Source: Gammaproteobacteria bacterium (GTDB taxonomy: Bacteria; Pseudomonadota; Gammaproteobacteria; SZUA-152). Taken from it: a DNA stretch of 64,000 bases. The stretch covers positions 302 to 64,301 of the forward strand of contig JAADGF010000020.1 in the NCBI GenBank assembly GCA_013152545.1. The letters are read 5' to 3'. Of this stretch, positions 11,331 to 31,063 are shown one piece after another. Under the pieces are notes generated by a model. That model was not told the origin of the DNA. It searched no databases and saw only the letters and a program-made list of their open reading frames with translations. Each line of letters starts with the position of its first letter. Positions within the stretch are counted from its first letter, which is position 1. A program made the translations under genes and the position numbers.

Positions 11331-12950
11331 ATGTACAAAGCGCTGTATCTTAAATACAAATGGTATCTGATCATTACGGTGCCCATGAGCATTCTATTGG
11401 GTATGGCAAGCATGAGTGTAATTGCAATTATCAGTGATGCCATCGGTAATCAGCTGGAGCAGATGAAGTATGGTGTTGAATATTTTTTTATCGCCATTGT
11501 TATTTTGTTTGTAGCGGGGTTGGTCAACGACTTGCTGGTCATCAAAATGTCTATCAACGTGAGCTACGATATTCAGGTGAAAATGATTCGCCGGGTGATT
11601 GCAACACCACTCGCCCAACTGGAGTATATCGGTTTACCCAAGGTGATTGCGACCTTGACGGAAGACCTGGAAACCGCAGAAAAATTCTTTCACCTGCTTC
11701 CCGTACTTATTGTCAATATTGCAATTGTAGTTTTCGGCATTGCCTACATGGCTTATCTATCGCTGGAGTTGCTGGGTATTGTGCTTGGCTTTTTTCTGCT
11801 CGGTTTTTTTACAATCGCCTGTTTACTTTGGTTTACAAAAAAAGATCGTGTTGCCATTCGAGAAACAACCGATGTCATGATGAGCTATTATCAACGGGTG
11901 GTGCTGGGCGCCAAGGAGCTAACACTCAACGAATTCCGCAAACATTTTTTTACTCGAAAAATATTTTCTACTTCGGATGAGATTCGCAACCGGAGTGGGC
12001 GGATTTTTAATTTACTTGCTGTGGTTGAGCAGTGGGCACAGCTTTTGGTGTTCACCATGTTAGGGGTTGTTATTTTTCTGGTTGGAAATTACATGTCGTT
12101 ATCCATGGAGGTTATTACGGGTTATGTGATTACCTTACTCTTTTTACTGGAACCCATTGAAGTGATCACTAATGGTTTCGATGAATTGATTGATGCAAAA
12201 GTAGCCTTTAATAAAATGGATAGTTTGCAGCTGAGTGACGTCGATGGATGGGACCAGATGCCCCCTCCAAAAATGTCAGATAATATAAATTCTTTTAGAG
12301 CAAAGCTGACGCTTGAATCTGCTGAATACGCCTATGCTTTAGGAACGAGTGATAAAACGGAGATGTTTTGTATTGGGCCAATCTCTACGCAATTTTTGCC
12401 GGGCGAAGTTACTCTGATTATCGGTGGAAATGGCAGTGGAAAGTCCACCCTGCTAAAAATGCTGTGCGGTTTATATCCACTGGATTCTGGCCGTATTTAT
12501 TTGAATAATGAGATAATTGAGCCTGACAATATAGAAATATTGCGCAAAAACTTCTCTATTATTACCGCTGATTTTTGTCTCTTCGAAGAGATTCTGGATG
12601 CAAATGGAAATTTATGTGATGACCAGATTATTCGAGCTCTTCTGGAAAAACTGAATCTCTCTGACCTGGTCACATCAACAAAAGGAGTGCTGTCTAACCT
12701 TGACTTAAGCCATGGGCAACGTAAGCGCTTAGCGCTGTTACAGGCTTATTGTGAAAGCAAACCTATCATACTGTTCGACGAGTGGGCTGCGGATCAGGAC
12801 CCACGATTCAAGAAAATTTTTTACCGGGAAATTTTACCCGCGCTGAAAAAACAGGAGAAAACCATTATTGTTGTTTCCCACGATAATCGCTATTTTGATT
12901 GCGCGGATAAGGTGCTGAAAATTGAACAGGGTAAGCGAGTGGCGTTTTGA
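11331..12950 (+). CDS. ABC exporter, fused permease-ATPase, cyclic-peptide export type (YojI/PvdE/SyrD-like)
   Basis: 6-TM N-terminal domain. Walker A GGNGSGKST, signature LSHGQRKRL, Walker B ILFDEWAADQD. The first ATG after the upstream stop is taken as the start. Confidence 0.65.
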   Translation: MYKALYLKYKWYLIITVPMSILLGMASMSVIAIISDAIGNQLEQMKYGVEYFFIAIVILFVAGLVNDLLVIKMSINVSYDIQVKMIRRVIATPLAQLEYIGLPKVIATLTEDLETAEKFFHLLPVLIVNIAIVVFGIAYMAYLSLELLGIVLGFFLLGFFTIACLLWFTKKDRVAIRETTDVMMSYYQRVVLGAKELTLNEFRKHFFTRKIFSTSDEIRNRSGRIFNLLAVVEQWAQLLVFTMLGVVIFLVGNYMSLSMEVITGYVITLLFLLEPIEVITNGFDELIDAKVAFNKMDSLQLSDVDGWDQMPPPKMSDNINSFRAKLTLESAEYAYALGTSDKTEMFCIGPISTQFLPGEVTLIIGGNGSGKSTLLKMLCGLYPLDSGRIYLNNEIIEPDNIEILRKNFSIITADFCLFEEILDANGNLCDDQIIRALLEKLNLSDLVTSTKGVLSNLDLSHGQRKRLALLQAYCESKPIILFDEWAADQDPRFKKIFYREILPALKKQEKTIIVVSHDNRYFDCADKVLKIEQGKRVAF

Positions 12951-13175
12951 TAGCCATCAATAATTGATCGTAAAAATTGGAAAAAATAAAAGTCTTAATT
13001 GTTGAGAATGACGTTGAGTTGACAGTCGCCATAAATGGAACACAACACCTCCCTGTCTTTAGTACAGGCAGATAAGCTGCCTTCAGATACTTCGGTGCAT
13101 GGATTTAAGCAGCATCCAGAGGGCATCAGCAAATCGATACCCTCACCACAAAGAAAGATATTGATTCTTTAAATG

Positions 13176-14307: not shown

Positions 14308-16698
14308 TCAAACGGACCATTTCCAATCACGAATTTCTGGTAGGTCCTGTCCATGTTTAACAATATAAGCGGTATGTTGGATCAATTTATCACGCATTTT
14401 CTGTTCTAGATAAGCCGCACTTGAACCAAGTGAGGGTACGCGATCAATCACATCCATCACCAAATGAAAGCGATCCATATCATTAAGTACTACCATATCA
14501 AATGGCGTTGTCGTAGTGCCCTCCTCCTTGTAACCTCGTACATGTAAATGATGATGGCACATGCGACGATAGGTCAGACGATGAATCAACCACGGGTAGC
14601 CGTGATAGGCAAATATCACTGGCGTGTTGGCGGGAAACAGTATATCGAAATCCTTGTCTGCCAGTCCGTGTGGGTGTTCACTCTGCGGTTGTAATGTCAT
14701 TAAATCCACGACGTTGATCACCCTGACTTTCAATTCGGGCAGATGTTGCCGCAACAAGCACACTGCGGCTAGGGTTTCTAGTGTTGGCACATCACCAGCG
14801 CAAGCCATCACAACATCTGGCCCCCCATCTTGATCGTTACTGGCCCAACCCCAGATACCAACACCCGTACTGCAATGTTTAATGGCGGCGTCCATGGAGA
14901 GCCATTGGAGTTGCGGTTGCTTACCGGCAACAATGACGTTAATGCGATTTTTTGAACGCAAGCAGGTGTTGCTGACATGCAATAAAGTATTAGCATCCGG
15001 TGGTAGATAGACGCGAATGATGTCTGCCTTTTTATTTACCACATGATCAATAAAACCCGGGTCTTGGTGAGAAAAACCATTGTGGTCCTGACGCCAAACA
15101 TGGGAGGTCAACAGATAGTTAAGCGACGCAATGGGCCGTCGCCAGGATATCTCTTTACCGGTTACTTTGAGCCACTTTGCGTGTTGGTTTACCATAGAGT
15201 CGACAATATGAATAAATGCCTCATAACATGACAATAGACCGTGTCGACCCGTGAGTAGGTAACCTTCCAACCAACCCTGACAAGTGTGTTCACTGAGAAT
15301 CTCCATCACACGGCCATCGCCGGAAAGGTGATCATCTTCCGGTAAAATCTCTGCCTGCCATGCCCGATTCGTAACCTCAAACAACGCACCGAGACGATTC
15401 GATGCTGTTTCATCAGGACCAAAGATACGAAAGTTTTTTGTTTCACTATTTAATTTCATAATGTCGCGCAAGAATTCACCCATCACGCGTGTTGCTTCGC
15501 CCACAATCTGTCCTGGCTGCATCACCTCCAATGCATAGTCACGAAAATCACACATGATCAGGTCTCTAAGCAGTCGACCACCGTTGGCGTGCGGAATCGC
15601 CCCCATGCGCCGCTCACCTTCGGGTGCCAATGCCGCAAGCTCGTCACGAAAAGTACCGTTGTGATCGAACAATTCTTCCGGCTTATAACTCTTCATCCAC
15701 CGCTCTAGCAATTCAATATGCTCAGGTTGGTTGGAGAGATTGCCAAACGGTACCTGATGAGAACGCCAATAGCCTTCAGTTTTTTTGCCATCAACCTGTT
15801 TCGGCCCGGTCCAACCCTTCGGTGAGCGTAATACAATCATCGGCCAGCGTGGTCGGGTTTTATTACCATGGACTCTCGCATTTTCCTGAATAATGTTGAT
15901 CTCGGCAGTAATCGTGTCTAACGTTGCCGCCATTTTCTGGTGCATGCGCTCAGGGTCCGAACCTTCAACAAAATAAGGCTTGTAACCATAACCGACAAAA
16001 AGTTTTTCTAACTCATCGTGGCTAATACGCGCCAGTACCGAGGGATTGGCAATTTTGTAGCCATTGAGATGCAGTATCGGTAACACGGCGCCATCGGTCG
16101 CAGGGTTAATGAATTTATTGGAATGCCAAGCGGTGGCCAACGGCCCTGTCTCCGCCTCACCATCACCCACGACACAAGCAGCGATCAAATCGGGATTATC
16201 AAACACCGCACCATACGCATGAGACAGCACATAACCGAGCTCACCACCTTCATGGATAGAGCCCGGCGTTTCCGGCGACACATGACTGGGAATACCGCCG
16301 GGAAAAGAGAATTGCTTGAATAGCTTTTTCATGCCCTCAGCATCCCGACTGATATTGGGGTAGAATTCGCTATAGGTTCCTTCGAGATAAGTATTTGCCA
16401 CTAAGCCCGGGCCACCATGGCCAGGCCCAGCGAGATAGATCACATTCAGATCCTCGCGTTTGATAACACGATTCAAATGAGCATAGATAAAATTCAGTCC
16501 TGGGGTGGTACCCCAATGACCAAGCAACCTTGGTTTGACATGTTCAAGCGTCAGCGGCTCTTTGAGTAACGCATTATCCAGCAAATAAATCTGCCCCACC
16601 GAAAGATAGTTTGCGGCACGCCAGTAGGCGTTGATCTGGGTCAGTTCGTTACTTGAAAGTGATTGCTCCATCACGTCAGTTTTGTTCGCCTTTTTCAT
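14308..16698 (-). CDS. xfp: xylulose-5-phosphate/fructose-6-phosphate phosphoketolase
   Basis: About 795 aa. Conserved N-terminus [26 protein letters not shown] and the TPP-binding region [11 protein letters not shown]. The start ATG (MKKANKTD) has a GGAAGG RBS and overlaps the ackA stop. Confidence 0.9.
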
Positions 16699-17845
16699 CA
16701 GAAACCCTTCCTTTTTTGAATACAGCAATTGCATCAAGCACCATCATCAGCGCTTCATTTACGGCTATCACCCAGACATCAACCTGGCTCGCCACAACAC
16801 TGATACGCGCCGCTTTGCCAGCAGCATGATGGCGGCGTCCAGCATCATGACATACCGTGTCATTACGTACAGGGTCCAGTTCCACACCCAACCATTCCAT
16901 GCCCTGGAGAATTTTCGTCCTCACCAAGGAGCTATTCTCACCCACACCACCGCCAAATAAAATGGCATCAGCCCCCCCTAACACCGCCAGATAAGCACCA
17001 ATGTATTTGCGCACCCGATAACAATAAAGATTGACTGCTAACACGGCTTGAGGATTGTCGGAATCCAGCAGTACGCGCATATCATTACTTTCACCGGATA
17101 TACCGAAAAGACCGCTCTGCTTATTCAATATGTCATCTAACGCCTCAACACTCATTCCCGTTTGTCGTTGCAAGTAAGTAACGACACCCGGGTCAAGATC
17201 GCCTGAACGAGTCGCCATCACCAAGCCTTCCAATGGTGAAAAACCCATCGATGTATCCACTGGCACACCGTGTTCTATTGCGGTAATGGAACACCCCGAG
17301 CCAAGCTGCACAGAAATAACCCGGCCACTCTGTTTCGCGTTTTGCTTCAGTCCCCACCAATGTTGCCACATTGCACGATGAGCAATACCATGAAACCCAT
17401 AACGACGAATACCATAGCGTTGGCATAACTCATGGGGCAATGCGTAGGTAGTCGCAACTTCTGGTAAGGAGCGGTAAAACGCTGTATCGAATACGGCCAC
17501 TTGAGGCACCTGTGCACCCAAAAGGCGACGCGCAACTCGAATCCATTCAAGTGCGGGCGGATTATGCAGTGGTGCCAGCGGAATTAACTGTTCGATCTGG
17601 GCTTCTATTCTGGCGTCAATTAAACTCGGCGTCGTTAACCCCGCACCACCATGAACCACTCGATGTACAATTAATGTAATTTCAGCAGCATCCACTAACG
17701 CGATAAAATCAGCTAATAGTAAATGATCGGGACTCCCTATGTCTTGATGGTGTGCTTCCGCCAGTTGCACCAAACCGTCATCATCGGATGCAAACAAACT
17801 CAAGCGCAGGGAGGAACTACCAGCATTGATTGTTAAAATTGTCAC
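16676..17845 (-). CDS. ackA: acetate kinase
   Basis: INAGSSS motif at the N-terminus, 389 aa, ASKHA fold. Confidence 0.9.
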
Positions 17846-17876
17846 TCGACAACGCCCTAATGTCCGCTACGCTTCT

Positions 17877-18635
17877 TCAGTCCAGATCCAGTGGTTTTTT
17901 AGACAGTACTTTTTTACCAGTAAACATTGCGGAGACAAGCCCATTCTTTTCTCTTACTTCTGCCACAACAACAGCGGCTATGTGTAAAATTATCGCAATG
18001 AGCAGTGCATAAAAAGAGTATACATGCGTTGTGATGAAAGGCTTTCTAAATTGGCGCATTTCAGCATAGGCATCAGAATCCACATTCTCTTTGGAGCCAG
18101 GTTTTAAATTTTTAATGCGTTCATGTTCCTCACCGGAGCCTGTTACCCATTCTGCTATCTCATGGCCAAACGGCGGTAAATACAGATCGGTTCCCGCTAA
18201 AACCAACCCCGTTGTTGCTTGTGTTGTCAGCAACACAAACAGAAGTGCTACCATAAGTTTCGCAATGGGGTTATGCCCTAAATACGGTGGCGGCTGTCCT
18301 GTTTTTGCGCCAGCAATATATTCACTCACAGAACGCCAATAAGCTTTTCCAATTGGCAAAATCATCTTCCAGCGAACGTATTTATTGCCGATAAACCCCC
18401 ACAGCAAACGCCACATCAAGTTTAAAACAAACACATAACCGATATAAACATGAACCGTTTTTAGCAGCAATTTACCATCACTACTCACCCCTAATATTTT
18501 ATGGTTAAGTATGGTTGTTCCGACACCGATAAGACCTATAATACAAATCACGTTGATCCAATGAAACCAACGCGTAGTGCGATCCCAGACAGAATAATAT
18601 TTAAGCGTTTTATGTGACGACTCATTATCAGACAT
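17877..18635 (-). CDS. cytochrome b561 family (CybB/HupC-like di-heme b-type membrane cytochrome)
   Basis: WDRTTRWFHWINV motif and 4 TM helices with conserved His. 32 nt upstream of ackA on the same strand. Confidence 0.65.
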   Translation of the reverse strand: MSDNESSHKTLKYYSVWDRTTRWFHWINVICIIGLIGVGTTILNHKILGVSSDGKLLLKTVHVYIGYVFVLNLMWRLLWGFIGNKYVRWKMILPIGKAYWRSVSEYIAGAKTGQPPPYLGHNPIAKLMVALLFVLLTTQATTGLVLAGTDLYLPPFGHEIAEWVTGSGEEHERIKNLKPGSKENVDSDAYAEMRQFRKPFITTHVYSFYALLIAIILHIAAVVVAEVREKNGLVSAMFTGKKVLSKKPLDLD

Positions 18636-21346: not shown

Positions 21347-22111
21347 CTAGTTTGTCGCTTGATTTGTCGCGCTGGAATCATCGCCATTCTCCAGTTTACG
21401 CCAGGTAAAGTGCTCATAAACACCAGACCAATACATGCCAAAACCAATGGCAAACAACAGTTCCTCGATTGGCATAAACCCAACCGTCACACCCGACAAT
21501 ACCTCCATATTCCAAACCCGGTCGATATAACCCGGCGCACTCCATTCCAGAGCCACCAAAAAAATCGCGTAATAGACCAAAAACAGTAAACCGCCAATCC
21601 ATGTTTTTTGCTTCAAGTCCGGTCGACAAAGTATCGTCGCCACCGCACCGGCAAACATGGCAATAATAGAGGGGTAAATTGGGTTCCAGGGAAAAAAATA
21701 AAGCGCTATAAATACAATAAACGGTGCTGCCAGCGCTTTGTAATGGTGCCGATGCAAAGCATGATGACGTACACAAGTATCAACAGTTTGAGGAATTTTT
21801 TGGCTCAACAAATTATAAAATACCGAACCGATTCCGCCAATGCCAAAGCAGAAAATCAGACTTTCGATATCAAAACCGGTATTCTCAGCCAGATCAAACA
21901 AACTCGGCGGCATCCAGTATTCCGGCACAAACAACGGCTCACTCAATCCGAACGGTGTAGTGAATAGACTCGCCCACAACATCGCCCGCCGTTGCGCAGG
22001 AAAGCACCAATAAACCAGCCCCCAGGGTATCAGAAATGCGCTCGACCAGAGTAACCAAACATATTGATCAGATAACATTTTTAGCGCTCTCCTTCTCCAC
22101 TCTTTTTTCAA
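21347..22111 (-). CDS. polytopic membrane protein, possibly lycopene-cyclase-domain (CrtYcd-like) family
   Basis: 7-8 TM helices and two PxEE-like motifs (SEPLF, PIEELLF). The family assignment is from memory only. Confidence 0.3.
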   Translation of the reverse strand: MKKEWRRRALKMLSDQYVWLLWSSAFLIPWGLVYWCFPAQRRAMLWASLFTTPFGLSEPLFVPEYWMPPSLFDLAENTGFDIESLIFCFGIGGIGSVFYNLLSQKIPQTVDTCVRHHALHRHHYKALAAPFIVFIALYFFPWNPIYPSIIAMFAGAVATILCRPDLKQKTWIGGLLFLVYYAIFLVALEWSAPGYIDRVWNMEVLSGVTVGFMPIEELLFAIGFGMYWSGVYEHFTWRKLENGDDSSATNQATN

Positions 22112-22180: not shown

Positions 22181-22921
22181 TTATTCTGCCGATAAAATAT
22201 CCGCGCAAAAACACGAAGGATGTTTATAGTGCGATGTAACGTAGCTTTCAGCTAAGGTTGCGATCAAACGTTGTGGATCAGCGTCGTAAATTACCTGTGC
22301 ACCGTTATCCTTGCCGTCAAAACTGGCAACAATGTCGGGAATTTTATCGGTGATGCCACCACTGCCTTGCACTACACCAATGAGTTTACCCTCATCGTAG
22401 GCGATGGCAAACTCCCCTAAGGTGCCAGAACGACCACCAATAATGATCACCATATCACTGGAGCGAATATTAGTGACTTCGCGTCCCATTAAACCACTCC
22501 CGGTGTAGATAAGTACGTCAAAACAATCTACGGGAGAGTGGTACTTCTGCACATGTTCGTCCAGGCTTAAGGCGGGCGAAATGCCAATCGAGAGACCTCC
22601 ACCGTTCGTCGCGCCACGGGCGCACTCGTAAGGCAGTCCAGGACAAGCGCCGGTGATAAGAATAAATCCCCGTTTGGCGATTTCCTGCCCCAACGCATAA
22701 GCAACCCCTGTTATCGATTGCGACTGTTCATTACCCGCCGAGCCCATCACACCAACGGTGAAACGCATACTCGGTACTTTATCGAGAAACGTTTCCGGGC
22801 ACGCCAGAAACTTCTGTTGACATTGCTCTGAACAGAAATAGTAACTGCGGCCCTCGTGCTCAGCTAGCGCCTTTGCCTTGCGCGGATCAAGCGCCATTAA
22901 ACACACGGGATCACGAATCAT
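22181..22921 (-). CDS. YHS/TRASH metal-binding domain fused to a LOG/TIGR00725-like Rossmann domain
   Basis: N-terminus DPVCLM...YYFCSEQCQQKF is a YHS domain. The remainder (GVMGSAG...ITGACPG...IIIGGRSGTLGE) is a LOG-family fold. Confidence 0.6.
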   Translation of the reverse strand: MIRDPVCLMALDPRKAKALAEHEGRSYYFCSEQCQQKFLACPETFLDKVPSMRFTVGVMGSAGNEQSQSITGVAYALGQEIAKRGFILITGACPGLPYECARGATNGGGLSIGISPALSLDEHVQKYHSPVDCFDVLIYTGSGLMGREVTNIRSSDMVIIIGGRSGTLGEFAIAYDEGKLIGVVQGSGGITDKIPDIVASFDGKDNGAQVIYDADPQRLIATLAESYVTSHYKHPSCFCADILSAE

Positions 22922-23431: not shown

Positions 23432-24211
23432 TCAACCAGTACCTCCACTTTCAATCGTCATGCGACAGCGCAAAAACCAAATTTGATAAAGTGAAATAAG
23501 AATTTGTAACGCCCACGATAATCCCAACAAACCGCCAGCAATGATTACGGTATAAGCATAGATCGGGTCCCATTTGGTCAAAAACCAAGCGGCAATATCG
23601 ACAAAAATAGCGATAAATGGTAATAATGTTAACGTGCATTGAAACCAGTCAGGCAGCAACGCGAAGCGGAACACCAAACCAATACCAAGCGCTACCAATG
23701 CGATACCAAACAAGTGGATATGCGACACCTTCATCAGACTGTGCAGCGAGACACCGGTATCCACATTGGCTACCTGTTTGATACCCTCGTAACTGCTGAG
23801 ATCTGGAATTTTCAAGCCAGAAGCCGCGCTATGACACATCACACACCGCTCAGCGAATATGGGTTTTATGATACGTTCGTAATCCGCTTCAGACGTACCT
23901 GACTTCAGCCACTCAATGACATGATTACGGTGCTCGGTATCAATATAACCTGACATCGGGCCTCGCAGTGCCGATTCCAAACGTGTACCACTGCGATTAC
24001 CGTAGTAGTTCTCAGCAACATCCTCTACTGACAATCCCGGCTTACCGTCAATGCCATTGTAACTGGTATAGAGATAGGCCAAGGCCATCAGGTAGGCGAG
24101 CCCCGCTAACAACAGAAACGAACTATAGAGCAACTTCTCGTTAAGGGTGCAATCATAAAAACGGCGCGGCCAAGTGACCTGACAGCCTTCCGTGTGATGT
24201 TTTTGACTCAT
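23432..24211 (-). CDS. membrane protein with a single CxxCH heme c motif (CVMCH) and three C-terminal TM helices
   Basis: One N-terminal TM helix, a soluble domain with CVMCHS, then a C-terminal TM bundle. Confidence 0.5.
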   Translation of the reverse strand: MSQKHHTEGCQVTWPRRFYDCTLNEKLLYSSFLLLAGLAYLMALAYLYTSYNGIDGKPGLSVEDVAENYYGNRSGTRLESALRGPMSGYIDTEHRNHVIEWLKSGTSEADYERIIKPIFAERCVMCHSAASGLKIPDLSSYEGIKQVANVDTGVSLHSLMKVSHIHLFGIALVALGIGLVFRFALLPDWFQCTLTLLPFIAIFVDIAAWFLTKWDPIYAYTVIIAGGLLGLSWALQILISLYQIWFLRCRMTIESGGTG

Positions 24212-24286
24212 TTACCTTTTACTCCAATTGTGATGACTTTAAACCCTCACCAACCCGTCTTTTTCAAAAAGCGTGTTAGGGGCACT

Positions 24287-25066
24287 CTACCCAGAGAGGG
24301 ATTCATCTAACTCAAAAACACAAACACGATAAAAATCAGAAAAACAGTGAAACTCATCAATTTGTTTGATCACCTTATCCTGTTTTTTTGCATGTTGCTG
24401 CAACATCGCAATCAAATCCAGACGCCAAAAACTCTCCAAGAATGGTTCCAAGCGTTGCAACAGCAGACGCGTAGGCCACAACCGCCATAGCAAATGTTTT
24501 TTAGGACAAGCGCCATACTCGGTGATGACCAAGCGGCCACCAGGCTGTAACACCCGTATCGCCTCACTAACACTATGCTCGCGCGCATCAGATGGTAACT
24601 CGTGAAGCAGAAAAAAGATAAGTACAGTGGCAAATACATTATCACCATAGGCAAGAAGCTCTGCATTCATTCGCGCACAAAGCAGGCGTTCCCTCGTCTC
24701 GTCAGTCAACTTTTTACGGCTCGCGGTTAACTGTATGTCTGCCACATCCATGAGATAGAGTTCGTCATCCATCGCCTTAAGCAGGGCAGGCGTCAAACTA
24801 CCATAAGCGCAGGTGAGCTGTAAAAACCGCCCCTGCGGCCGATTTTTCATACAGTCGCGTAGCGCCCTCAGCGACAGTGTCCGGTACTGCCCAAAAAGAA
24901 TGGCATTGATAATCGGCTGGTGATCGAAAAACCAGACGCCCCAGTGCCAGAGGTAAGCCCACCAATAGTGACGCACCAGATATTCTGGCTTACCATTGAG
25001 AAAGCGCCGCCAAATACCTGTCGGCAATTCGTTATTTTTGTGGTGCTTTGATGACATATCGATCAC
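24287..25066 (-). CDS. class I SAM-methyltransferase-like protein with a degenerate motif I; candidate rhodoquinone biosynthesis enzyme RquA
   Basis: Motif I reads FLQLTCAYG (the Asp and glycines of hhDhGxGxG are replaced). Post-I YLMDVAD, motif II VLIFFLLHELP, motif III LQPGGRLVI. Confidence 0.4.
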   Translation of the reverse strand: MIDMSSKHHKNNELPTGIWRRFLNGKPEYLVRHYWWAYLWHWGVWFFDHQPIINAILFGQYRTLSLRALRDCMKNRPQGRFLQLTCAYGSLTPALLKAMDDELYLMDVADIQLTASRKKLTDETRERLLCARMNAELLAYGDNVFATVLIFFLLHELPSDAREHSVSEAIRVLQPGGRLVITEYGACPKKHLLWRLWPTRLLLQRLEPFLESFWRLDLIAMLQQHAKKQDKVIKQIDEFHCFSDFYRVCVFELDESLSG

Positions 25067-25414
25067 CTACAACTCAGTTCTGCTTACTGGTTTGTTAACA
25101 AATAACTCGCTAACGTGTCTATACTCATAGCGTTTTTAATTTAGATCTAAATGTGTGTCATATTGATTTCATGGCCAGGCAAAATGGCGCGGAATAGACA
25201 CTCTAATTGCGAGACATTTTAACGCCGCCATGGGATTAATAGAGCATGCAGTTAGGCCTAAGTCTCAAACGCTATGGGTATATATCCTTAGCTGCCAATC
25301 TCCACGCCATAACCAAACACGCCGTTGAGCCATAGAAGCCCGCACAATGTCCTGAATGATCATGTGCATTCCTTCTTTCGTTGACAAAAACTGACTTAGG
25401 AACATGCACGTTTC

Positions 25415-26668
25415 TTAAAACCCTCTCAGCCGAATAGCATGATCAACCCGCCCAATCGCCAACTCATAGGCCGCAGAACGCATATCGATTTTCCGTTCCT
25501 GCGCCAGATCACGCACCACATCGTAAGTACGGGAGAGTCGTTTCTCCAAGCGGCTCAGTACCAGTTCCCGGTCCCACGGGAACTGTTGTAAGTTCTGCAC
25601 CCATTCATAGTAGGATGCCAGCACACCACCTACATTCGCCAGCAGATCCGGCACAATAACAACAGCGCGCTGCTGCAAACGTTGATCCGCTTGATGCGTA
25701 ATAGGGATGTTGGCCGCCTCCACAATCAACGGAGCTTGAATGGCATCGGCGTTATCACAGGTAATGGTTGCTTCCAACGCAGCAGGGATCAAAATTTCAC
25801 AGGGCAGTTCGAGCAATTCAGCATTACTAACCGCAGCAGTACCAGCCAGACCTTGCAATGCACCCGTCTCACGCACATGCGCCAGCGCCAAGCCGACATC
25901 AATCCCTTTCTCAGAATAAACACCACCACGAGAACCGGAAAGTGCAATGATTTTATATCCTTTACTCGCCAAACTGATCGCCGCATGGGAGCCAACATTA
26001 CCAAAACCCTGGATCACCACCCGACTCTGTTCGGCAATAAGCGACATCGCCATAGCCGCCTTGTCGGCCAGGTGGGCGACACCGTGACCAGTTGCCTCCA
26101 GTCGTCCAGCACAACCTCCTAGCGCCATCGGTTTACCAGTAACAACGGCCGTTCTATAACCGTGAGTTTTGCTATACTCATCCAATATCCAGCCCATCAC
26201 CTGAGGATTAGTGCCAATATCCGGTGCGGGAATATCTTCATGCACACCAATGATCGGCGCCATTTTTTGACAAAAACGTTTGGAAAGCTCTTCTAACTCA
26301 GTTTCGTTCAACTGCTTCGGATCAACCGCGACCCCCCCTTTGGCGCCACCAAAAGGGATATCCACCAAGGCCGTTTTCCAGGTCATCAATTGTGCTAACG
26401 CCCGCACTTCCCCCAAATTAACATCCGGATGAAAACGTAACCCACCTTTGAACGGTCCACGAGCATGATTGTGTTGCACGCGGTAGCCCTGAAAGGTGTG
26501 CAGAGTATTCTCACCATTGTGGCGCAACGTCACTGGCACAGTCACGCGCGTCTCCCGAAACGACGAGAGCAACAGCGCTTGTCGCGACGCCTTTAGCTTA
26601 AGACGACTAAACGCCGAATCAAGAAAATGGCGTTGAGTCTTCTGGCAAACGCATTTTTTATCCATCAA
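25415..26668 (-). CDS. glutamate dehydrogenase (Glu/Leu/Phe/Val dehydrogenase family)
   Basis: KGGLRFHP and the catalytic FGGAKGG motif. C-terminal Rossmann motif GFGNVG. Confidence 0.85.
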   Translation of the reverse strand: MMDKKCVCQKTQRHFLDSAFSRLKLKASRQALLLSSFRETRVTVPVTLRHNGENTLHTFQGYRVQHNHARGPFKGGLRFHPDVNLGEVRALAQLMTWKTALVDIPFGGAKGGVAVDPKQLNETELEELSKRFCQKMAPIIGVHEDIPAPDIGTNPQVMGWILDEYSKTHGYRTAVVTGKPMALGGCAGRLEATGHGVAHLADKAAMAMSLIAEQSRVVIQGFGNVGSHAAISLASKGYKIIALSGSRGGVYSEKGIDVGLALAHVRETGALQGLAGTAAVSNAELLELPCEILIPAALEATITCDNADAIQAPLIVEAANIPITHQADQRLQQRAVVIVPDLLANVGGVLASYYEWVQNLQQFPWDRELVLSRLEKRLSRTYDVVRDLAQERKIDMRSAAYELAIGRVDHAIRLRGF

Positions 26669-26954
26669 CGCGCTCCTCCTTACTACCGCGAAGTACGGTG
26701 AAATTGTAGATTGGCACCCAAATCAAGGCGAAATACCAGCCATAACCGTACGCCTCGATCAACCCCAGAAAAAAACTTTTCCAACTCAGCCACTCGAAAC
26801 CCGGTAATAGTTTTTGCCAGGTTTCGTACATTGCATGCCCAGGAAAAACCAGATCAAACCCGACACAGAGCACAAAACTGATTGCCAATGTGAAACTGGT
26901 GGCATGACCCACACCCAACAACGACATCCCCTGCCTATGATGACTACATTTCAT
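26658..26954 (-). CDS. small integral membrane protein (2-3 TM), unknown function
   Basis: The ORF overlaps the upstream YHS gene by about 11 nt and the gdh start by 11 nt. Hydrophobic. Confidence 0.4.
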   Translation of the reverse strand: MKCSHHRQGMSLLGVGHATSFTLAISFVLCVGFDLVFPGHAMYETWQKLLPGFEWLSWKSFFLGLIEAYGYGWYFALIWVPIYNFTVLRGSKEERVDG

Positions 26955-27234
26955 GCTTTTCTCCCTGTTCTTTATTGAGATAACGCTCGGGATCAGCATC
27001 AAACTTATCGAGGCAACTTCGAGAGCAAAAGCGGTAGAGTTTCCCTCCATGCATTTTGCCGTAACCTTGCTCAGCCTCGACCTCCATATCGCAAACAGGG
27101 TCGATGTATTTCACCGCCTTACCGGTACCCCGCGAATGACCACCATGGCCGTGCATCATGTGTGCACCACACCCGAAGCGCATCATGATAAAAAACAGAA
27201 TTGCAAAGAACAATAACGAACCCAGGCCTTCCAT
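26944..27234 (-). CDS. His-rich YHS-domain protein (secreted or anchored)
   Basis: N-terminal hydrophobic segment, an HMMHGHGGH stretch, and a YHS domain DPVCDMEV...YRFCSRSCLDKF. Confidence 0.65.
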   Translation of the reverse strand: MEGLGSLLFFAILFFIMMRFGCGAHMMHGHGGHSRGTGKAVKYIDPVCDMEVEAEQGYGKMHGGKLYRFCSRSCLDKFDADPERYLNKEQGEKHEM

Positions 27235-27278
27235 ATATCACCTCCTGTTTGGGTTTCAGTTAGGAATATTCGCGTTCC

Positions 27279-27953
27279 TTACCTCGCTTCCTCATCCCGA
27301 ACCTCTACCATTAAAAACGCCTTCCATTGATTGAAAGATGGAAAAAAAGCGGGGGTTTTACGCACGTATTCGTTGTATGTCTCGCCAAACTCCAGCTCAG
27401 CGCGTCGCTCTTCGACCCGGGCTAGGTGCACATAGGCATAGAGCATAATGGGTGCCATTAACACGGTGAGTAACGTCGGCCACTGCACCAGAAAACCGAT
27501 GATGACCAGAAACAGCCCCGTATATTGCGGGTGACGGGCGTAGGCATAGATACCGTCGATGACCAAAGCACCACGTGCAGCGTGGATCTGGGTCCAGCCT
27601 TTTGAAAGTAGCGTGTAGCCCATAATCATCAACACCAGACTCAAAATCATCACGACCGCCCAGGCCAAGGTTGAACCGCCGAATACCACAACCCAGAGGT
27701 GGCCGAGCTTGTGGTTGAAAGGTTGTAACACCGGATAAGCATCACCTAACCAACCAGTGAGCAGATAAATGGTTAATGGGAAACCGTACATTTCGCTAAA
27801 AAGAGCCACCAGAAAGGCAACCACGACCCCCATGCTACGCCATTCCTGACCACCCCTCGGCTTGAGAAAACTCAAAATAAAAAAGAGAAACAGGCCGATA
27901 TTAAAAGCCGCTACCACCCACATACCATAAGCATATTCGACTTCACCATGCAT
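27279..27953 (-). CDS. isoprenylcysteine carboxyl methyltransferase (ICMT/PEMT) family membrane protein
   Basis: C-terminus VIDGIYAYARHPQYTGLF...EERRAELEFGETYNEYVRKTP is characteristic of the family. Confidence 0.7.
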   Translation of the reverse strand: MHGEVEYAYGMWVVAAFNIGLFLFFILSFLKPRGGQEWRSMGVVVAFLVALFSEMYGFPLTIYLLTGWLGDAYPVLQPFNHKLGHLWVVVFGGSTLAWAVVMILSLVLMIMGYTLLSKGWTQIHAARGALVIDGIYAYARHPQYTGLFLVIIGFLVQWPTLLTVLMAPIMLYAYVHLARVEERRAELEFGETYNEYVRKTPAFFPSFNQWKAFLMVEVRDEEAR

Positions 27954-28036
27954 TATTTAACTCCCCCCCCCTTTCTATTTAGGAACAGCACTCCATCGCA
28001 ATTTACCGCTACACCAATACCATGAGAGCACTGCTG

Positions 28037-30628
28037 CTACAGTTTTACTCCTCTCAATCTGAGGGCATTTGTTATCACCGACACCGAACTGAAACTCATG
28101 GCTGCGGCTGCAATGATAGGCGAGAGCAACAAACCGAAGAAAGGATAGAGCACGCCCGCCGCAACCGGCACACCCGCCGCATTGTAAATAAATGCAAAAA
28201 AGAGGTTCTGGCGGATATTGCGCATAGTGGCACGACTGAGGCGACGCGCCCTGACAATACCGCGCAAATCTCCTTTAACAAGCGTTACGCCAGCACTCTC
28301 CATAGCAACATCAGTACCAGTGCCCATAGCAACACCGACATGCGCCTGCGCTAATGCTGGCGCGTCGTTAATGCCATCACCCGCCATAGCAACAATGCGC
28401 CCCTCGGCCTGAAGTTGTTTCACCACCTCAGCTTTTTGATCCGGTAACACCTCAGCCTGAACCTGATCAATATCCAGCTTGGCAGCCACCGCTTCGGCAG
28501 TCTTGCGACTATCACCGGTGAGCATCACCACACGGATGCCTTCGCCATGCAGGTCACGAATCGCCTCAGGGGTGGTGGCCTTAATGGGATCGGCAACACC
28601 AATCAAACCAGCGGCTTTACCATTGATCGCCAGCAGCATCACCGTCTGGCCTTCAGCTCGCTGGCTATCCGCTTGTTGCGGCAATTCGCCCGCATCAATG
28701 CCGAGACTCTGCAACAACGCAAGATTACCCAACGCCACCTTACGGCCATCGACGATACCAGTGACGCCCTTGCCGGTTACCGACTGGAAATCATCGACGC
28801 CGATCAATTCCACACCTCTCTCCTCAGCACCCTGCACAATAGCCTCGGCCAGCGGATGTTCGCTGGCCCGTTCAAGACTGGCGGCCAGACGTAAATTGTC
28901 ATTGTCCTGAAAACCGTGCTCAGCGATGACAGAAACCAATCTCGGCTTACCTTCGGTCAGCGTGCCAGTTTTGTCCACCACTAAGGTATCTACCTTCTGC
29001 ATGACTTCTAATGCCTCAGCATTTTTGATCAACACCCCCATCATTGCGCCTTTACCGGTACCGACCATAATTGACATGGGTGTCGCCAAACCCAATGCAC
29101 AGGGACAGGCAATAATCAGCACCGCTACTGCATTAATCACCGCATAAGCAATGGCCGGCTCCGGCCCCCACAAACTCCAGATAATAAATGTGATAACGGC
29201 AATGAGTACCACCGCCGGCACAAAGTAACCGGCGACAACGTCCACCAGCTTTTGAATAGGGGCACGGGAACGCTGTGCTTCAGCTACCATTTTAACAATT
29301 TGCGATAACAACGTGTCGGCACCCACTTTATCGGCGCGCATCACCAGACCGCCAGTGCCATTGACAGTCGCACCGATCAATTTTTCTCCTGCGGTTTTAA
29401 CCACAGGGAGCGGCTCACCAGTCACCATCGATTCATCAACATTGCTTTCGCCATCCAGCACTTCGCCATCCACTGGCACCTTCTCTCCAGGACGAACCCG
29501 CAAACGATCACCGCGCTGCACATGTTCCAGCGGTATATCTTCTTCGGTGCCATCATCGCGCACGATACGCGCTGTTTTCGGTGCCAAACCCAACAAGAGT
29601 TTGATCGCCGCATTCGTCTGGCTGCGGGCACGCAATTCCAATACTTGCCCCAATAAAACAAGCGCTGTTATGACAGCAGCTGCTTCAAAATAGACCGGGA
29701 TCACCCCCATCTCGTTCAACACAGCTGCCGGGAAAATACCCGGCATCACAACACCAATAAAACTGTAAACCCAGGCGATACTCACACCGATAGCGATTAA
29801 TGTGAACATATTGAGGTTACGCGTCATAACTGACTGCCAGCCACGTACGTAGAATATCCACCCTCCCCACCACACTACGGGCGCAGAAAGCAACAATTCG
29901 ATCCATTGGCGAGTTTTCGGGTTAATGATTTGCGCCATGGTTTCAGGCCAAAACTCAGCACCCATAGCACTAAAAAAAACAGGGATTGCAAGTATTGCAC
30001 TGATCCAGAAGCGACGGTTCATATAGTCCAGTTCGCTGCTATCCTCTTCCACCTCCACAGTCATCGCTTCCAGTGCCATGCCACATTTGGGGCAATTACC
30101 GGGATGATCTTGAACAATTTCCGGATGCATAGGACAAGTGTATTCGGTTCTTGTAGTGGATAAGGGGATATTTTTCGGCTCAAGCGCCATACCGCACTTG
30201 GGGCAACTGCCTGGGCCTTGCTGTTCAATCTCAAGGTGCATGGGACAGGTGTAAATTGCCGATCCATCCAGCGGACTGGATGCTTTTACTGTATGATGAG
30301 CATGATCCTCGCCACCACAGCAACTGTTTTTTTCGTGCTTCGTCTTGATCAGATATTGTCCAGGTGACGTCAAAAACTTATCTAAGCAACCTATGCTGCA
30401 AAAATAGTGGCTGTTGCCCTCGTATTCTGTGTGATGTGCTGACGCGGCGCTAACCACCATACCACACACCGGGTCAGTGAGCGATTCGCTTGGTACATAT
30501 TGCGCAGGATCAGCGTCAAACTTTTGCAGACAATGCTCACTACAGAAATAATAACGCTTGCCACTATGATCCGTGTAGTATTCTTTATCCTCCGCCACGT
30601 CCATGCCGCAAACCGGATCAATTTTCAT
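28037..30628 (-). CDS. copA: copper-translocating P1B-type ATPase with 2 YHS plus 2 CPMHxE...CPKCGM metal-binding modules
   Basis: CPC in a TM helix (ACPCALG), DKTGT, HP (SEHPL), GDGINDAP. The N-terminus carries two YHS domains and two CPMH...CPKCGM modules. Confidence 0.9.
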
Positions 30629-30649
30629 ACTCCGCCTCCTCTAATTTGC

Positions 30650-31063
30650 TCAAACAATGGACTCGATCAAATGACAAATCGCCTCACCATCCGGTTCACC
30701 ATCTGGCATTGATTTCCACTGATCTAAAGCATTATCCATTCGTTCTTGCAGTGCATTGAGTTCAATCATCCTCACTCTATTTTGATCAATGCGCTGACGA
30801 ATAATGTCGCGTACCGCCGGACAGGGTGACTGCCCATCATTGCTATGATCGAAAATGGTCTGAATATCGCTCAACGTGAATCCAAGCCCCTTGGCTCGGC
30901 ATATGAACTTCACTTTCTTAATATCATCGTCGTTAAAGAGCTTGTATCCATTATTAGGATCGCGTGACGGCGCTAACAACCCGATACGTACATAGTGGCG
31001 TATCGCATCCGGAGTGGCTTGCGCCGCTTTTGATAACTCACTGACAGTCAACATATCGTTCAC
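30650..31063 (-). CDS. cueR: MerR-family metal-responsive regulator (CueR/HmrR-like)
   Basis: N-terminal MerR HTH, a dimerization helix, and C-terminal Cys residues (CPAV..., ICHL). Lies 21 nt upstream of copA. Confidence 0.75.
   Translation of the reverse strand: MNDMLTVSELSKAAQATPDAIRHYVRIGLLAPSRDPNNGYKLFNDDDIKKVKFICRAKGLGFTLSDIQTIFDHSNDGQSPCPAVRDIIRQRIDQNRVRMIELNALQERMDNALDQWKSMPDGEPDGEAICHLIESIV

Follow-up and report, generated by a model that had tools for sequence, protein, structure and literature searches.

A divergent RquA-like gene at the distal end of a copper-export cluster in a gammaproteobacterial genome

Does the methyltransferase-fold gene that lies beyond a copper-export cluster in a Gammaproteobacteria bacterium (assembly GCA_013152545.1) encode an RquA, the enzyme that turns ubiquinone into rhodoquinone, or an ordinary quinone methyltransferase? 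The preliminary description of the locus took the first view and added that rhodoquinone would imply an anaerobic metabolism based on fumarate reductase. We analysed the gene within a stretch of 64,000 nucleotides of contig JAADGF010000020.1 (positions 302 to 64,301), hereafter the window, to which all coordinates refer (Table 1). The open frame on the minus strand runs over 259 codons from a GTG at 25066 to a stop at 24287. An ATG at 25057, three codons inside this frame, is preceded by an AGGTG ribosome-binding site and yields 256 aa, the length of the database twin of the protein (P0002), so that the ATG is the likely true start. The described frame is a real gene and not a chance one, since more than 1200 homologues were retrieved and purifying selection acts on it, with dN/dS values of 0.07-0.15 against vent relatives, for which dS is near saturation. 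Our scan for promoters and terminators around the gene performed at chance level. In the 348 bp upstream it returned a weak sigma-70-like site (25387-25359, 9/12), and a search there for an FNR/CRP box gave only a 2-mismatch site (25136-25149) that is not above background. A perfect TTGAT-N4-ATCAA palindrome of the FNR/CRP type is found elsewhere in the window (12947-12960), at the 3' end of an ABC-transporter gene and between convergent genes, which is not a promoter position.

Table 1. Features of the RquA-like locus and its surroundings in the window.
Feature	Position	Strand	Observation
Lycopene-cyclase-domain (PF18916) membrane protein	21347..22111	-	in type 2 loci, between the RquA-like and haem genes
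YHS-SLOG (TIGR00725-like) fusion	22181..22921	-	domain search; neighbour named in the preliminary description
Haem-motif membrane protein, 259 aa	23432..24211	-	one CxxCH (residues 123-127, 23831-23845); SHIH in a transmembrane helix
Spacer between RquA-like and haem genes, 75 bp	24212..24286	-	no terminator-like site
RquA-family gene (lithotroph-type clade)	24287..25066	-	ORF, AGGTG ribosome-binding site, NF038261 165.3 bits, trees, dN/dS ~0.1
His155-Glu156 in FFLLHE(L/M)P	24599..24604	-	invariant across the family
Asp107, post-I acidic residue	24746..24748	-	equivalent to R. rubrum RquA D118; invariant in 107/107 aligned sequences
Motif I replacement LQLTCAYG, residues 82-89	24800..24823	-	RquA signature LQxxC[VA]YG; Q83, C86, Y88 and G89 near-invariant in classical and lithotroph-type clades
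Upstream region, 348 bp	25067..25414	-	weak sigma-70-like site only, no good FNR box
Glutamate dehydrogenase gene	25415..26668	-	between copper cluster and RquA-like gene in type 1 loci
Copper cluster: MerR/CueR, CopA (YHS, HMBD), ICMT/PEMT-like, YHS, DUF5676	26658..31063	-	co-directional, upstream

The best model for the protein is NF038261, the NCBIfam equivalog of RquA (165.3 bits, E 1.6e-48), and the next-best family is UbiE, with 41.5 bits on a model whose cut-off is 158.35 (TIGR01934). The score on NF038261 is nevertheless below the curated cut-off of 175 bits, a point to which we return below. An exhaustive search of 1.8 billion representatives recovered 222 proteins at E<1e-10. Motif I does read LQLTCAYG, as had been described, with a single glycine in place of the hh[D/E]hGxGxG of class I methyltransferases. 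The pattern is of the RquA type, but the idea of a degenerate motif holds for the whole family and not for this protein in particular. Indeed, LQxxC[VA]YG occupies motif I in every one of about 150-155 full-length members of the alignment, which makes it a positively conserved family signature; the replacement has been described for RquA (Stairs 2018; Neupane 2022, PMC9814641). All the family-invariant residues are kept (Y38, D107, L153, H155, E156 and P208), as are the near-invariant Q112, K119, R171 and E207 besides those of motif I listed in Table 1. His155 and Glu156 are candidate catalytic residues or metal ligands. In R. rubrum RquA, D118 contacts the ribose hydroxyls of SAM, and D143 is near the adenine N6, the mutant tested being the double D118A/D143A only (Neupane 2022, PMC9814641). 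The equivalent of D143 was assigned from an alignment that does not include the R. rubrum sequence itself. The D143-equivalent is Asn (in a motif RMNAE) in the protein studied here and in 61/63 members of its clade, while in classical RquA it is Asp in 45/62 and Asn in 16/62. The fold was also correctly described, a class I methyltransferase with its post-I, II and III motifs kept: Pfam finds Ubie_methyltran (the best, at 42 bits), Methyltransf_25 and Methyltransf_11, and the AlphaFold2 model reaches a pLDDT of 94.5. The best match of this model in the PDB (Foldseek) is yeast Coq5 with SAM (4obw, probability 1.00, TM 0.61-0.68), and the others are generic class I methyltransferases. A sequence search found no solved RquA structure.

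Trees rooted on the UbiE of the same genome divide the family into two parts. The first is the classical clade (62 rows, support 99), so called because its representatives score 238-302 bits on NF038261, the R. rubrum sequence not being in the set. The second is a group that includes the clade referred to here as lithotroph-type, which is well supported and made up of vent Gammaproteobacteria, Zetaproteobacteria and Gallionellaceae together with a small number of Rhodospirillales MAGs. Between the classical and lithotroph-type clades stand intermediate sequences that bridge them. The branch to the UbiE outgroup is very long, and a check for grouping with UbiE- or UbiG-type enzymes that have a glycine-rich motif gave no such grouping. 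In a careful maximum-likelihood tree the lithotroph-type clade has a support of 99/99, and within it a gamma sub-clade (99/92) unites our protein with ALP53758.1 of Tenderia electrophaga (P0411, assembly GCA_001447805.1). WP_100266340.1 of Mariprofundus ferrinatatus (P0274) falls in the Zeta/Beta half of the clade, outside the gamma sub-clade. These two proteins, respectively 53% (over 236 residues) and 52% identical to ours, are those that we could place in the clade out of the 16 RquA homologues that Chobert 2024 (PMC11707229) expressed in E. coli, where 15 of them gave RQ8. According to Table S2 of that study, ALP53758.1 produced 23-35 units of RQ8 in 3 of 4 samples, roughly a tenth of the 200-390 units of the best classical RquAs; the vector control is 0 in the nine samples shown, yet its summary cells give a mean of 1.2 and an sd of 3.4. 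WP_100266340.1 produced zero RQ8 and was the sole negative among the 16. Asn likewise occupies the D143-equivalent in the active Tenderia enzyme, so that this residue is compatible with activity.

Membership of the family is shown by profile, motifs, fold and phylogeny, and the gene encodes a real but divergent relative of RquA. This bears out the proposal that the protein is RquA-like rather than an ordinary UbiE or UbiG: the RquA model outscores UbiE by far, the family signature is present and the protein is monophyletic with the active Tenderia RquA. Its position below the curated cut-off needs to be read against the clade as a whole. Lithotroph-type proteins score 159-187 bits on NF038261, and clade-mates stand on both sides of the line (159, 162, 177, 180, 184 and 186 bits), among them the active Tenderia enzyme at 180 bits, 15 above the protein studied here. 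The 175-bit cut-off therefore bisects a monophyletic group. As a consequence automatic annotation of the clade is inconsistent, with some members named RquA and most "class I SAM-dependent methyltransferase"; NCBI already applies the name RquA to a sister sequence (P0070) and to other members, and JGI labels relatives 'UbiE'. The clade also appears to lie outside the survey of Stairs 2018 (eLife), since Tenderia, Gallionellaceae and Zetaproteobacteria are absent from its text.

The genome (assembly of 4.5 Mb, 97.9% complete) encodes UbiA (334 bits), UbiE (276), UbiG (283) and two UbiH-type O2-dependent hydroxylases (448 and 413), so that the substrate of an RquA would be available. We found in it no MenA and no UbiU or UbiV of the O2-independent ubiquinone pathway, its sole U32 protein being TrhP. 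With an O2-dependent ubiquinone pathway and no menaquinone, rhodoquinone would be the only low-potential quinone of the cell. Chobert 2024 (PMC11707229) found RquA together with the O2-independent pathway in 73/84 genomes, and the organism belongs to the minority of carriers that lack this pathway. The genome encodes RuBisCO, a single complex II of the forward type (SdhCDAB) and no Frd-type fumarate reductase. This is the picture of a microaerophilic autotroph and not of a classical fumarate respirer, and the anaerobic, fumarate-reductase-based metabolism that had been proposed finds no specific support in it. Elsewhere in the window (14308-18635, minus strand) are co-directional genes for a cytochrome b561 (PF01292), acetate kinase and phosphoketolase (XFP), all three confirmed by Pfam.

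The best reading of these data is that the protein is a functional lithotroph-type RquA that makes rhodoquinone, and we consider it reasonably probable. It draws on the RquA profile, a clade that contains the active Tenderia enzyme, the conserved invariants, a dN/dS of about 0.1 and the presence of the ubiquinone pathway. Counted against it are the score below 175, the absence of RQ8 for the M. ferrinatatus protein and the weakness of the Tenderia signal, as well as the substitutions fixed in the clade and the lack in this genome of Frd, of an FNR box and of an O2-independent ubiquinone pathway. Of the proposal of rhodoquinone biosynthesis, then, the family stands and the product is plausible, tempered by the cut-off and by the fact that one of the two tested clade members was inactive in E. 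coli. RquA has a class I methyltransferase fold but does not methylate, and uses SAM as amino donor with Mn2+ (Neupane 2022, PMC9814641). By extension from the family, the protein would be a monotopic membrane enzyme in which D107 and adjoining residues bind SAM. Its reaction, with Mn2+, would put the alpha-amino group of SAM in the place of a methoxy group of ubiquinone, giving rhodoquinone. Under low oxygen, rhodoquinone would serve as a low-potential carrier for the single SdhCDAB or for other enzymes that depend on quinol. The gene is probably transcribed together with that of the mono-haem membrane protein downstream, and in this lineage it lies at the distal end of the CueR-CopA copper-export cluster. 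The product, the cofactors, the co-transcription and any tie to copper are in this account what we infer from sequence.

The most serious alternative, which we judge unlikely without dismissing it, is that the enzyme has shifted its job: that it carries out a related but different reaction, still dependent on SAM, whose substrate is a quinone or some other membrane compound, or depends on a partner or oxidant absent from E. coli, and that what it mainly makes in vivo is something other than rhodoquinone. The gap in NF038261 scores between the two clades speaks for such a shift, and so do the substitutions that the lithotroph-type clade has fixed with respect to classical RquA, namely E183 for D, R247 for Q, L210 for A and an aromatic WFFDHQPI block. 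The negative M. ferrinatatus result and the weak Tenderia signal point the same way, as does the linkage of the gene to copper-export genes and a haem protein and not to respiratory or ubi genes; RquA is moreover reported to require an unidentified oxidant in vivo (Neupane 2022, PMC9814641). On the other hand, the Tenderia enzyme, a member of the same gamma sub-clade, yielded authentic RQ8, the family-invariant residues are all retained, and the bridging sequences link one clade to the other. A single negative result in a heterologous host is, besides, weak evidence.

The neighbourhood matches the preliminary description, which had placed the gene beside a membrane haem-c protein and a YHS-LOG fusion; both are present, as the membrane CxxCH protein and the YHS-SLOG/LOG-like fusion of Table 1. 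Among the vent-gamma loci whose sequence extends far enough downstream (about 21), 18 have the haem gene after the RquA-like gene; the spacer measures 5 bp in two loci (L004 and L010), 75 bp in the window and 24-95 bp elsewhere. The two genes probably form a bicistronic unit. The haem-motif protein had no match in our local Pfam and NCBIfam libraries, and an ESM-Atlas feature search linked it at 0.99 to three clusters whose members are 97-100% PF27139 (Aq_1264_TM), the putative family of the protein, for which we found neither paper nor structure in the literature and the PDB. The invariants of the haem-motif family (alignment A2) are C123-x-x-C126-H127, Met86, S163-H164-I165-H166, D205, W209 and T212-K213. 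Aq_1264_TM paralogues are not adjacent to the RquA gene in Mariprofundus and Sideroxydans genomes; those of Mariprofundus hold 2-4 of them, one of which contains an interrupting TGA (L100).

The copper cluster and the RquA-like gene remain linked in three different arrangements. In type 1, that of the window, glutamate dehydrogenase is inserted ahead of the RquA-like gene. Its gene ends 9 bp before the RquA-like start in one locus (L004) and overlaps DUF5676 by 5 bp in another (L017), so that it may be co-transcribed with its neighbours. In type 2 the order is DUF5676, the RquA-like gene (after 20-70 bp), the lycopene-cyclase-domain protein and the haem protein. The window has no carotenoid genes near its own lycopene-cyclase-domain gene. 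In a locus from a different sub-clade (L030), the RquA-like gene is followed after 100 bp by MerR, CopA and ICMT. Types 1 and 2 occur together in one MAG (JALSGT01; L012 and L021). The RquA-like proteins of such double-copy relatives (also G024 and G032) are 78% and 66% identical to ours, and in these genomes the haem gene adjoins one RquA-like copy and is separated from the other by the lycopene-cyclase-domain gene. Two diverged copies of the module suggest either a duplication or repeated acquisition of the island.

A more far-reaching idea is that of a two-gene module, RquA-like and Aq_1264_TM, expressed from or with the CueR-CopA operon, that would remodel the quinone pool upon exposure to copper or to metal-rich, low-oxygen fluid, the haem protein acting as the oxidant or redox step of RquA. 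Neither the part of the haem protein as redox partner in vivo nor the copper-linked expression is more than speculative, and we think the whole scheme quite doubtful. If it were true, it could account for the failure of some clade members to act in E. coli when produced on their own, and it would mean that vent autotrophs turn ubiquinone into rhodoquinone or a related aminoquinone.

The linkage may have another origin: the gene may be carried along on a mobile copper-resistance island without any physiological connection to the metal, the association being due only to shared descent and island shuffling. We hold this to be improbable; it concerns the context and not the activity of the enzyme, and is compatible with the reading of a rhodoquinone-forming RquA. 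Distribution is in its favour: the gene is present in 17/32 species genomes of the organism's family, including this one (G000; 16/31 relatives), patchily by genus (0/4 in one of them), some genomes having a second copy, and the module looks like an island. A search for RquA on plasmids gave distant Natrinema methyltransferases only. In Gallionellaceae the gene lies among housekeeping genes (ArgRS, SPOR, DsbA-like, GatB and GatA, with an SDR directly upstream; L036, L040, L041, L045, L048, L051, L056, L073, L075 and other loci), which is consistent with vertical inheritance there and gives no clue to its function. This context is also in line with the literature, in which no genes are consistently linked to rquA. 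Against mere passage, however, the linkage recurs in the three gene orders, including that of the different sub-clade (L030), with spacers of 5-100 bp.

Finally, an ordinary UbiE/MenG/UbiG-type paralogue with a drifted motif I, as the top Pfam match (Ubie_methyltran) and the JGI labels of relatives might suggest, is scarcely credible and was rejected, given that UbiE models score 31-42 bits against cut-offs of 158-378, that genuine UbiE and UbiG are encoded elsewhere in the genome, that motif I lacks the glycine-rich pattern yet keeps the form LQxxC[VA]YG in hundreds of sequences, and that UbiE joins the tree by a very long outgroup branch.

Our results show that about half of a large clade, of hundreds of sequences, from sulfur- and iron-oxidising vent autotrophs escapes the curated RquA model. 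Genome-based maps of rhodoquinone thus under-count microaerophilic lithotrophs. If rhodoquinone is made by the organism studied here, it would be the only low-potential carrier, with possible roles as a fumarate sink via SDH, in reverse electron flow or under metal stress. The RquA family itself is known; what is new is a divergent and under-annotated member of it in a copper island together with an Aq_1264_TM haem protein. The literature that we searched describes no RquA-like gene behind a copper pump with such a haem partner, and no public sequencing runs were listed for the RquA-haem two-gene stretch.

Compared with classical RquA (R. rubrum Rru_A3227, Q2RPC3; NF038261; Lonjers 2012; Stairs 2018; Neupane 2022), the protein shares the profile family, the LQxxC[VA]YG signature, the Asp equivalent to D118, the FFLLHE.P and E-P-F blocks and the Coq5-like class I fold. 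It differs in its score (165 bits against 238-302), in belonging to a separate, well-supported clade, and in having Asn at the D143-equivalent, TEYG for VDYH and the WFFDHQPI block. UbiE, MenG and Coq5 (PF01209, TIGR01934) are alike in fold and in the post-I, II and III motifs, Coq5 being the top structural match, but our protein lacks their glycine-rich motif I, scores far under their cut-offs and comes from a genome that holds a true UbiE elsewhere.

Among the tested relatives, the Tenderia enzyme (ALP53758.1, Tel_11785) has in common with our protein the gamma sub-clade, the WFFDHQPI block, a motif of the RMNAE type, the xEY motif and an NF038261 score near the cut-off (180), whereas its source is a different lineage, an electroautotroph from a biocathode, and its activity in E. 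coli is low. The M. ferrinatatus protein (WP_100266340.1, annotated RquA) shares the lithotroph-type clade and all the invariants, but belongs to the Zeta/Beta half and not to the gamma one, and the haem-protein paralogues of Mariprofundus genomes are not adjacent to their RquA gene. As for the context, the MerR-CopA-ICMT core corresponds to the island-borne "copA cluster" of marine Gammaproteobacteria (Cusick 2021, PMC8478169). That cluster (merR-copA-(cupredoxin/hypothetical)-ICMT) has MerR, CopA and ICMT-like genes in common with the module upstream of our gene, but a UbiE/RquA-like gene and a cytochrome are both absent from the paper's account of it. In the loci examined here, further genes are added to it: YHS, DUF5676, in some loci glutamate dehydrogenase, the RquA-like gene, in some the lycopene-cyclase-domain gene, and the Aq_1264_TM haem gene.
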